From an uncultured Candidatus Saccharibacteria bacterium (GTDB lineage: Bacteria; Patescibacteriota; Saccharimonadia; Saccharimonadales; CAIOMD01): a stretch of 64,000 nt of DNA. A model generated the notes under the pieces. It ran no database searches, was not told the DNA's origin, and saw only the letters and a program-made list of their open reading frames with translations. Position 1 is the stretch's first letter. Each line of letters opens with the position of its first letter. Location: assembly GCA_964566135.1 (NCBI GenBank), contig CAZMHM010000001.1, positions 69,829-133,828 on the forward strand, in the 5' to 3' direction. The translations under genes and the position numbers were made by a program. Of this stretch, positions 39,610 through 41,579 are shown piece after piece.

Positions 39610-40989
39610 CTATACGACCTCTTTAATTGAACCCTTTAGATAAAACGCCGATTCTGGCTTATCATCATGCTTGCCGTCAAGAATTTCCTTACAGCCCTTA
39701 ATGGTATCTTCAAGCTTTACGTATGCACCAGGCTTGTTTAAAAACACCTCGGCAACATGGAATGGTTGTGTCAAGAACCGCTGTATACGACGTGCACGCG
39801 CAACGGTTTGCTTGTCTTCATCGCTAAGCTCTTCCATGCCGAGGATTGCAATGATGTCTTGCAAATCTTTGTAGCGCTGTAAAATGCCTTGCACACCACG
39901 TGCAACATCATAGTGCTCATCACCAACAACCTCACGACTCAAAATCGTAGAACTACTATCGAGTGGGTCAACGGCTGGATATAGGCCAAGCTCAGTTAAT
40001 GCACGGCTCAACACGATAGTGGAGTCAAGGTGGCTAAATGTAGTTGCTGGGGCTGGGTCGGTAAGGTCATCAGCTGGCACATATACTGCCTGTACAGATG
40101 TAATAGAACCAGTTTTTGTACTAGTAATGCGTTCTTGTAGCGAACCCATCTCTTGCTGCAAGTTAGGCTGGTAACCTACCGCACTCGGCAAACGACCCAA
40201 AAGGGCAGATACTTCAGCACCCGCTTGGGTAAAACGGAAAATATTATCAATAAACAAGAGCACGTCTTTGCCTTCGTCGCGGAAGCCTTCTGCAAGCGTA
40301 AGCCCAGTTAAGCCAACACGCAAACGTGCACCAGGTGGTTCATTCATCTGGCCAAACACTAGGCTGGTTTTGTCCAAAACGCCGCTATCTGCCATTTCGT
40401 GATATAAGTCATTACCTTCACGGGTACGTTCACCAACACCGGCAAATACTGAGTTACCACTGTGGTATTTAGCAATGTTATTAATAAGCTCGGTGATAAG
40501 CACGGTTTTACCCACGCCAGCACCGCCAAATAGGCCAACTTTACCACCTTTTGTCATTGGGCAAATAAGGTCAATAACCTTAATACCAGTCTCTAAGATT
40601 TCAATTTTTCCACTCTGCTCTGCAAGGGTAGGTGGGTCGCGATGGATAGGCGCAGTGTGCGAAAACTTCGTCGCTGGCTTGCCATCGATTGGATCACCAA
40701 CAACATTAAACATACGACCCATCGTTTCATCACCAACAGGAACGGTAATTGGCGAGCCTGTTGCGATAACGCTGTCACCGCGTTTAAGACCATCTGTACT
40801 GCTCAGTGCAACGGCACGCACCGTAGTTTCGCTTAAGTGCTGCGCTACCTCGAGGTAGAGTTTTTCATCTCCACGTTCAATAATAATTGCGTCGTAAATT
40901 GCGGGCAGGGAATCCTTTGGGAATTCAACATCGACAACGACACCGACTACCTGGATTACCTTACCGTTTACTTTTGTTGCTGTTGTCAT
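39610..40989 (-). CDS. atpD: F0F1 ATP synthase subunit beta
   Basis: [15 protein letters not shown]-loop, [23 protein letters not shown]. Confidence 0.97.
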
Positions 40990-41579
40990 TATGCTACTCC
41001 TTCTTCTGATTGAATTGTGATTACTTCTGCGATTCCTACTGATGCCATATTTTGTATTTTCTCGAGCTCTTTCGTAAGTGCCGCTAATCGTTTTTCCTCT
41101 CTGAGGACATCAATTTTCAGACGCTTTTCGGCATTTGTTAGAACAATAATCTCACGCCATCTATCATCGTAAAAATCCATTAGTTGTTTTAGTCTGTCAG
41201 GATGATGTTCTTCAAAGGTTACATCCTCAACATAAGACCAAGGCTCAGTTATCTGTTCTTCTTCGCTCATGAGCACTTCTGTGGGTATGGTACGTCCGAC
41301 TAAAACTGCCTCTAATGCCGCTATCCGTGTCTGTAACTCAAGTGCATTAGTAATTAATGCCTCAACACGATCACAGACAGTAGGAAATAAAAACCCGTCA
41401 TCTGCTTCGATAATACTCACGATGGCTGAGCTTGGAATTGACGTTGTAGTTTCGTCGTAGCCCAGTGCAAGCAGGGCTGCATCCCTCTTATCTTTCTGTG
41501 ATGGATGAGCCGTCACATCGGCAACAGTCAGCAGATAATCATCCTTGAGTGCATGTATTGTTGCGAAAGCTTCAGTCAT
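40989..41579 (-). CDS. hypothetical protein embedded between atpG and atpD
   Basis: 196-aa acidic helical ORF. ATG lies 4 nt after the atpG stop and its TAA overlaps the atpD ATG (TAATG). No motif recognised; the track start 41624 is TTG inside atpG. Confidence 0.5.

Follow-up and report, generated by a model that had tools for sequence, protein, structure and literature searches.

A clade-restricted gene, probably a passenger, in the variable atpG–atpD slot of the ATP synthase operon in Saccharibacteria

The ATP synthase (atp) operon in a 64,000-nucleotide stretch of contig CAZMHM010000001.1 (assembly GCA_964566135.1, positions 69,829 to 133,828; hereafter the window) of an uncultured Candidatus Saccharibacteria bacterium contains an additional gene between atpG and atpD, which encode the gamma and beta subunits of F1. 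This gene, termed orfX here, covers positions 40989..41579 of the minus strand, encodes 196 amino acids counted from an ATG start codon, and belongs to no assigned family. orfX is probably, though far from certainly, a clade-restricted passenger gene, which is expressed via the atp operon and is not an obligate component of the ATP synthase. The atpG–atpD junction acts as a variable gene slot throughout the phylum, and orfX displays the features of a passenger in such a slot, namely purifying selection, unrelated genes at the same site in other genomes, and a patchy presence. Because unrelated genes use the slot and close relatives run the enzyme without orfX, the position of the gene says little about its function. 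The original prediction, made from the sequence alone, had named an assembly factor, a regulator, and a hitchhiker as possible roles. The comparative data favor the hitchhiker or passenger; the F1-associated options are disfavored, but retain a minor share of the probability.

The orfX gene and its relatives

Relatives of orfX were sought by word-indexed and exhaustive HMMER searches over billions of proteins. Five were found: P0001, which is 98% identical, and P0002, P0004, P0005, and P0006 (41% to 48% identity in the searches and 42% to 50% in the alignments). With this profile search, which the original prediction had proposed as a check, the family comprises six members, and all of them are located in the same slot. 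The proteins are 192 to 196 amino acids long; P0006 had been called too short, and a GTG codon 4 nt past the atpG stop codon restores a length of 192 amino acids. Scans of metagenomes and viral sequences with the family profile yielded no further members. The family is limited to a small group of Saccharibacteria. Its members come from the samples SRR19360587, SRR14092350, SRR13287418–25, SRR7754200, and JGI 3300081800.

In the window, the atpG stop codon TAA (41586–41584) is separated from the ATG of orfX (41579–41577) by the 4-nt spacer CTAC (41580..41583), which is the geometry of termination–reinitiation coupling. At the other end, the TAA of orfX (40991–40989) shares base 40989 with the ATG of atpD (40989–40987), resulting in the one-base stop/start overlap TAATG (40987..40991). 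The final codons of orfX (E-G-V-A) contain the Shine–Dalgarno-like motif of atpD, AAGGAG (40997..41002), at a distance of 7 nt upstream of the start codon of atpD. The coordinates, the 4-nt gap, and the overlap described in the original prediction were confirmed from the sequence. The list of open reading frames (ORFs) also contained a longer version of orfX with an alternative TTG start at 41624; the ATG is the preferred candidate, as it fits the N-termini and the 3- to 4-nt spacing of all homologues. The same arrangement was found on every contig with a member of the family, that is, atpG, 3 to 4 nt, the ORF, and a stop/start overlap with atpD. The spacing is 3 nt in locus L082 and 4 nt in L083, L084, L088, and L001, and the overlap is ATGA in L082 and TAATG in the other four. 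Most of the contigs carrying the family are short; the full order atpBEFHAG-X-D is visible in L083. The sequence GAAGGAGTAGCA at the ribosome-binding site of atpD is identical in the six loci compared (L085–L087 not among them).

The reading frame is retained in full-length orthologues at 41% to 50% identity. Between the window and L001, synonymous divergence (dS) of orfX is 0.094 (12 changes) and nonsynonymous divergence (dN) 0.007 (3 changes), corresponding to a dN/dS ratio (omega) of 0.07. For L083 and L084, the values are dS 0.50, dN 0.077, and omega 0.15 for orfX compared to dS 0.43, dN 0.006, and omega 0.014 for atpG. These ratios point to purifying selection on the orfX protein, which evolves approximately 10 to 12 times faster than gamma. 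The six-member alignment contains 61 invariant positions, concentrated in residues 27–54, 63–95, 112–127 (EPWxYVE), and 141–172 and in the C-terminal EGVA, which is also constrained as DNA by the ribosome-binding site of atpD.

orfX is a real gene, since its synteny is conserved, its sequence is under purifying selection, and its frame is kept at 41% to 50% identity. It had been considered that the ORF might be absent from all relatives and free of coding constraint; relatives exist, and omega is between 0.07 and 0.15. That orfX is no gene, being either a chance ORF or an assembly artefact, is hardly credible. Apart from the lack of database matches, nothing speaks for it, whereas orfX recurs in independent assemblies of five or more sample sets, selection acts on it, and only about 0.1 random ORFs of its length are expected per whole window. 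Very improbable, too, is an unimportant protein, with orfX serving as a translated spacer that relays ribosomes or being a young, near-neutral gene in an expanded spacer. The ends of orfX are fixed by the stop codon, the Shine–Dalgarno motif, and the start codon of its neighbors, and many ORFs at this junction in other genomes are short acidic orphans. However, the low omega and the 61 invariant residues indicate selection on amino acids, and relatives with an empty slot couple atpG and atpD via approximately 10 nt, so that a relay is not needed.

As a separate observation, the synonymous divergence of orfX between the window and its 98% to 99% identical relative L001:874–1464 (12 changes at 135 sites) is higher than that of the flanking atpG and atpD (6 at 325 sites; Fisher p = 0.0009). 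This could be due to recombination or to a tighter constraint on the codons of the F1 genes.

The atpG–atpD junction in Saccharibacteria

The atpG sequences closest to that of the window all belong to Saccharibacteria (TM7, Patescibacteria). The original prediction had suggested surveying the atpG–atpD junction in related genomes, and this survey covered the atp operons of 80 species-representative genomes (one genome per species) using simple ORF calling; a fixed rule set the start codons of atpD, a few of which are misplaced by some codons. The junction proved to be variable across Saccharibacteria, with close relatives of the window containing another ORF or none. The gap between atpG and atpD exceeds 100 nt in 34 out of 60 Saccharibacteria species loci, and its median is 10 nt in the remaining 26. 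Of the 34 expanded gaps, 27 are filled by just one same-strand ORF with a length of 60 amino acids or more; in 19 of these 27, its ATG overlaps the TGA of atpG as ATGA. In the other phyla of the survey, the gap measures 6 to 45 nt in 10 out of 12 loci, and neither of the two exceptions (L066, 198 nt; L081, 111 nt) contains a credible same-strand gene. An independent sample of 80 metagenome loci gave the same picture, with approximately 24 of 53 measurable junctions expanded and up to three genes and 1.7 kb in the slot.

The slot in Saccharibacteria holds one to three same-strand genes of mutually unrelated families. Among the occupants are a histidine phosphatase (His_Phos_1), a NUDIX hydrolase, a nucleoside deoxyribosyltransferase-like protein (Nuc_deoxyrib_tr), a four-helix bundle (23S_rRNA_IVP), an HXXEE membrane protein, another membrane protein, and many orphans. 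Clustering of the slot ORFs resulted in 17 multi-member BLAST clusters, some of which represent overlapping alternative-frame ORFs, and 105 singleton ORFs; the 17 clusters resolve to at least seven distinct multi-locus families. Where pairs of other occupants exist, their omega is 0.19 to 0.28, as under purifying selection. In Nanosynbacter-like genomes with identical atpG 3′ ends, the slot is empty or contains either the phosphatase or the deoxyribosyltransferase-like gene. atpG ends with A-TGA in these loci, and the empty site already holds the ATG of the ATGA overlap ('caATGAtaaaggag'). Members of PF05635, a family known from intervening sequences of 23S rRNA, are encoded in the slot in L030:6893–7279, L056:6906–7298, and L106:1348–1764 and at the atpD–atpC junction in L072:8432–8800. 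In these other lineages, they take the slot that orfX has in the window, and orfX is unrelated to them; unlike most occupants, the PF05635 genes in the slot do not overlap the stop codon of atpG. Judging by what else is found in the slot, orfX may function independently of the ATP synthase. It is most likely one long-lived occupant of the slot.

Several observations weigh against a passenger. This reading is inferred from neighbors in other genomes. All eight family loci hold orfX in this slot, and no copy was found elsewhere (most contigs being short), whereas a passenger that moves freely might also turn up at other sites. orfX has also stayed in place across lineages in which atpG is only about 62% identical. 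Furthermore, ORF-sized expansions are confined to the atpA–atpG, atpG–atpD, and atpD–atpC junctions; none was seen at any of the four junctions between atpB and atpA. Finally, 26 out of 35 slot ORFs (loci L002–L066) have an isoelectric point (pI) below 5.5 compared to 29% of 397 background ORFs (Fisher p = 2 ∙ 10−7), and this acidic bias could point to a shared, F1-connected function invisible to sequence comparison. The bias could as well stem from a tolerance of highly expressed benign proteins or from purine-rich sequence. The atpA–atpG and atpD–atpC junctions are expanded by 200 to 960 nt in approximately 17 loci per junction, frequently in the same genomes (among them L005, L006, L010, L018, L020, L022, L034, L053, L055, and L061), and the ORFs located there are mostly orphans. 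A large apparent atpA–atpG gap in L013 (4875–5817) turned out to be an assembly gap (a run of N) within a duplicated atpA fragment and was left out of the expansion counts.

Distribution and history of orfX

orfX is absent from L002, L003, L004, L090, and L091 and from all other surveyed operons. The slot is empty in L090, L091, and L004, whose atpG is 66%, 56%, and 56% to 57% identical to that of the window, respectively, and L003 (55% to 58%) contains an unrelated ORF of 80 amino acids. A different ORF directly follows atpG in L089, the atpG of which is 84% identical; this contig ends 173 nt past atpG, leaving room for orfX further downstream. The first 53 residues of the L089 slot ORF align without gaps to the 113-amino acid slot ORF of L002 (30% identity, E = 0.003).

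A neighbor-joining tree was calculated from alpha, gamma, and the first 219 to 225 residues of beta. L002 was placed as sister to the orfX-bearing L083 in 200 out of 200 bootstraps, and the window was placed elsewhere. Because of this grouping, the carriers of orfX do not form a clade of their own without non-carriers among them. The divergence rankings of orfX and atpG agree within the family, which fits vertical descent. In the simplest history, orfX is an old slot gene, perhaps once arranged in tandem with an L002-type gene, and was lost or replaced several times. The original prediction that orfX is not a recent insert agrees with its occurrence in lineages differing in atpG to the extent given above, and the host-like composition noted there was found again (G+C content 42.5% in orfX and 44.9% in the window).

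A connection between orfX and the short delta subunit of the window (129 amino acids), which had also been raised, did not hold. Delta measures 121 to 143 amino acids in all 35 measurable Saccharibacteria loci, irrespective of whether the slot is full or empty, and is therefore short phylum-wide and independent of the insert. The role of orfX as a compensation for the short delta was ruled out, since the short form also occurs with an empty atpG–atpD junction. For the atpH product of the window, the only one scanned against Pfam, the match to the OSCP profile is confined to the C-terminal half of this profile. The helical domain that usually forms the N-terminal part of delta binds the N-terminus of alpha; in the atpH product of the window, this domain seems to be reduced to approximately 50 residues.

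Properties of the orfX protein

The orfX product is predicted to be a soluble, acidic, and all-helical protein. Its pI is 4.49 and its net charge −19, and it contains no hydrophobic segment. The AlphaFold2 model is all-helical with two long helices (residues 64–93 and 140–189), a mean predicted local distance difference test score of 63.9, and a predicted template modeling score of 0.60 for an input of six sequences; the model is weak because the family comprises only these six. The most conserved block, residues 27–54 (41418..41501, minus strand), was recognized by its invariant columns in the six-member alignment and verified by translation. The motif EPW(S/D)YVE at residues 112–118 (41226..41246) is part of a low-confidence linker joining the two long helices. 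Residues 141–176 (41052..41159) belong to the conserved C-terminal helix and display a coiled-coil-like pattern (WRE..L..AEK.L..D....E.RL..L).

No recognizable motif had been noted in orfX, which was borne out by family and fold searches. Pfam, NCBIfam, PHROGs, and PADLOC gave no credible match to orfX; the best PHROG match had an E-value of 0.065 for orfX and 0.054 for P0002, and PADLOC yielded nothing for orfX and LmuB with E = 0.023 for P0002. A sequence search of the PDB returned coiled-coil chains only (GCN4, TRPA1; E > 0.3), and Foldseek did not match the model to any structure in the PDB or to viral models. AtpI, zeta/DUF1476, IF1, Atp11, and Atp12 were not among the Pfam matches of the six members at E ≤ 1. 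A diverged copy of an atp subunit was ruled out by hhalign comparisons with each Saccharibacteria subunit alignment (probability ≤4%) and by the lack of a Pfam or NCBIfam match. Two further candidates were dropped: DUF4317 (E = 0.0025), for which the match was limited to two near-identical members, and P0003, a 1032-amino acid tandem-repeat helicase (E = 8 ∙ 10−4), the score of which was inflated by four repeats and which was absent from the profile searches. The Pfam "hits" of P0003 itself represent repeat noise. The orfX profile found nothing among the other slot ORFs and the six-frame translations of all atpG–atpD gaps, and hhalign of orfX with the ORFs of L002 and L003 gave probabilities below 1%. 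A C-terminal "aromatic-x-x-G" motif seemingly shared by several slot ORFs was lost upon iterative searching with hidden Markov models.

The helical and acidic character of the protein is also what would be expected of a clade-specific soluble partner of F1, i.e., an inhibitor, regulator, or assembly chaperone, which binds via its long helices. Its position between gamma and beta would then ensure that it is made in step with both, and the C-terminal helices of epsilon, zeta, IF1, and Atp11/Atp12 would be comparable cases. We consider this possible but unlikely. The strict synteny and conserved coupling in all eight loci, the purifying selection, and the fact that orfX was never seen outside the slot are in its favor, as are the enrichment of acidic ORFs in the slot in general and the confinement of expansions to junctions of F1 genes. 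On the other hand, orfX resembles no F1 regulator or subunit known so far, the closest relatives of the organism lack it, so that F1 works without orfX, and the slot also contains enzymes and membrane proteins for which a role at F1 is not plausible. In addition, the orfX protein evolves about 12 times faster than gamma, and no convincing co-adaptation was detected in alpha, gamma, and beta: only five carrier-specific residues were found in this low-power test, none of them compelling. A broader version, which is rather doubtful, assigns orfX and the other acidic slot proteins to one fast-evolving class of soluble F1 partners. Translated together with gamma and beta, these would tune or block the synthase or the ATPase activity in episymbionts that are limited in energy. 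Regulators of this kind would then be repeatedly invented or exchanged within the F1 part of the operon, the exchange possibly proceeding by natural transformation and homologous recombination via the conserved atpG and atpD flanks. Southlakia epibionticum has been reported to be naturally transformable.

Still less probable is a selfish or conflict gene, such as an acidic anti-defense protein or DNA mimic, or else a mobile-element remnant, which persists since its clean removal from between two essential, coupled genes is difficult. The very narrow and patchy distribution of orfX and its strong acidity would be in line with such a gene, and the intervening-sequence family 23S_rRNA_IVP is found in the slot and at the atpD–atpC junction of other genomes. 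However, neither PHROGs nor PADLOC gave a match, no relatives were found in phage records or viral contigs, and the predicted fold matched no viral model. Transposase, nuclease or endonuclease, integrase, and toxin domains were not detected in orfX with Pfam and NCBIfam. Only short repeats at chance level were found, none of them at the borders of orfX; direct or inverted repeats flanking orfX were not detected, nor were attC-like repeats or a target-site duplication in the window. The host-like composition and the agreement with the divergence of atpG likewise argue against this explanation.

Expression within the atp operon

For the favored passenger gene, expression would depend on the surrounding operon. 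orfX would be transcribed as part of the polycistronic atp mRNA. Ribosomes terminating at atpG may reinitiate 4 nt further on at the ATG of orfX, and those terminating at orfX may reinitiate at the overlapping ATG of atpD, aided by the AAGGAG inside orfX. The insert would thereby relay translation from gamma to beta and leave the operon unbroken. In a small genome with few promoters, orfX would borrow the strong, constitutive atp operon as a promoter and translation platform. The activity of its product is probably protein binding via the two long helices. Co-transcription and translational coupling, both part of the original prediction, are likely: no promoter-like or terminator-like site was found on the coding strand within orfX, and the coupling geometry is kept in eight out of eight family loci. 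RNA elements (Rfam) were not found in the orfX region, and the window contains no paralogue of orfX.

Comparison with known systems

Additional non-structural ORFs that are co-transcribed with ATP synthase genes are exemplified by atpI, atpZ, and atpQ/atpR (the latter in N-type ATPase operons), which lie at the 5′ end of the operon and code for small membrane proteins. orfX differs from these in that its product is soluble and acidic, is encoded between gamma and beta, and matches none of them in Pfam and NCBIfam scans at E ≤ 1. The C-terminal domain of epsilon, zeta of Paracoccus, IF1, cyanobacterial AtpTheta, and Atp11/Atp12 are likewise small and helical, and the position of orfX would suit such a protein. 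No sequence or fold similarity was found between orfX and these helical F1 inhibitors and chaperones, and orfX is dispensable in close relatives.

Integron cassettes and integration hot spots resemble the slot in that unrelated, promoterless cargo resides at one site, depends on an upstream promoter, and varies between relatives. In contrast to integrons, an integrase, attC-like repeats, and target-site duplications were not seen in the window, and translational coupling ties the cargo to the essential genes flanking it. The FESNov catalogue (bioRxiv 10.1101/2022.01.26.477801) collects novel families from uncultivated taxa that lie within conserved operons. orfX resembles them as an unassigned family of Patescibacteria in strictly conserved order beside genes of energy metabolism. 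It differs in that unrelated families take each other's place at this position, which undermines guilt by association. In literature searches, neither the slot nor a gene located between atpG and atpD was found to have been described.

Unknown genes of uncultivated bacteria are commonly assigned a function from their gene order, and the slot of orfX is a concrete warning against guilt by association: the gene stands in the tightest possible association with F1 genes, and yet its position serves unrelated genes in general as a parking place. If this holds in all available genomes, the slot shows that repeated gene gain at particular junctions can be tolerated, and perhaps even favored, by an essential operon whose subunit ratios are tuned, in promoter-poor, reduced genomes. 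Should orfX bind F1 instead, its product would be a regulator of a new type for the ATP synthase, in a phylum with a poorly understood energy metabolism.

Other features of the window

The genes of the atp operon follow one another on the minus strand of the window as atpB-E-F-H-A-G-[orfX]-D-C, and all eight atp genes reach the Pfam cut-offs. The Fo subunits a, c, and b are encoded by atpB (45151–46020, PF00119), atpE (44917–45132, PF00137), and atpF (44366–44896, PF00430). They are followed by atpH (delta, 129 amino acids; 43977..44366), which matches positions 95–168 of the 172 positions of the PF00213 profile, and by atpA (F1 alpha, 514 amino acids; 42436..43980; PF00006 and PF00306). The upstream neighbor of orfX, atpG (F1 gamma, 282 amino acids; 41584..42432), matches PF00231 (E = 1 ∙ 10−82) and TIGR01146, and its downstream neighbor, atpD (F1 beta, 459 amino acids; 39610..40989), matches PF00006 and PF02874. 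The last gene is atpC (epsilon, 145 amino acids; 39170..39607; PF02823).

Approximately 100 nt downstream of atpC, the minus strand encodes a protein of 210 amino acids (38435–39067) with sub-threshold matches to domains of unknown function only. Its N-terminus is acidic and of low complexity, its middle part resembles a coiled coil, and its tail is rich in threonine; the protein has one hydrophobic segment. About 1.2 kb upstream of atpB and on the same strand, a gene encoding subunit I of a cytochrome bd oxidase (445 amino acids, PF01654, E = 1 ∙ 10−91) is followed by a CydB-like ORF of 171 amino acids (47195–49047 for both). The latter scored 32.9 bits, which is below the Pfam cut-off, and has about half the usual length. 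An OpgC-like acyltransferase gene (46167–47198) lies between this pair and atpB on the opposite strand.

Two RNA elements were detected in another part of the window. A riboswitch of the c-di-GMP-II (cyclic di-GMP) class (18284–18367, minus strand; 59.7 bits, above the gathering score) is located directly upstream of an ORF encoding a GGDEF diguanylate cyclase of 261 amino acids (17485–18270, minus strand), and a feedback loop on cyclic di-GMP synthesis is possible. A ribosomal protein L10 leader (18424–18547, plus strand; 61.2 bits) precedes two ORFs at 18599–19120 and 19149–19529, which are presumably rplJ and rplL.

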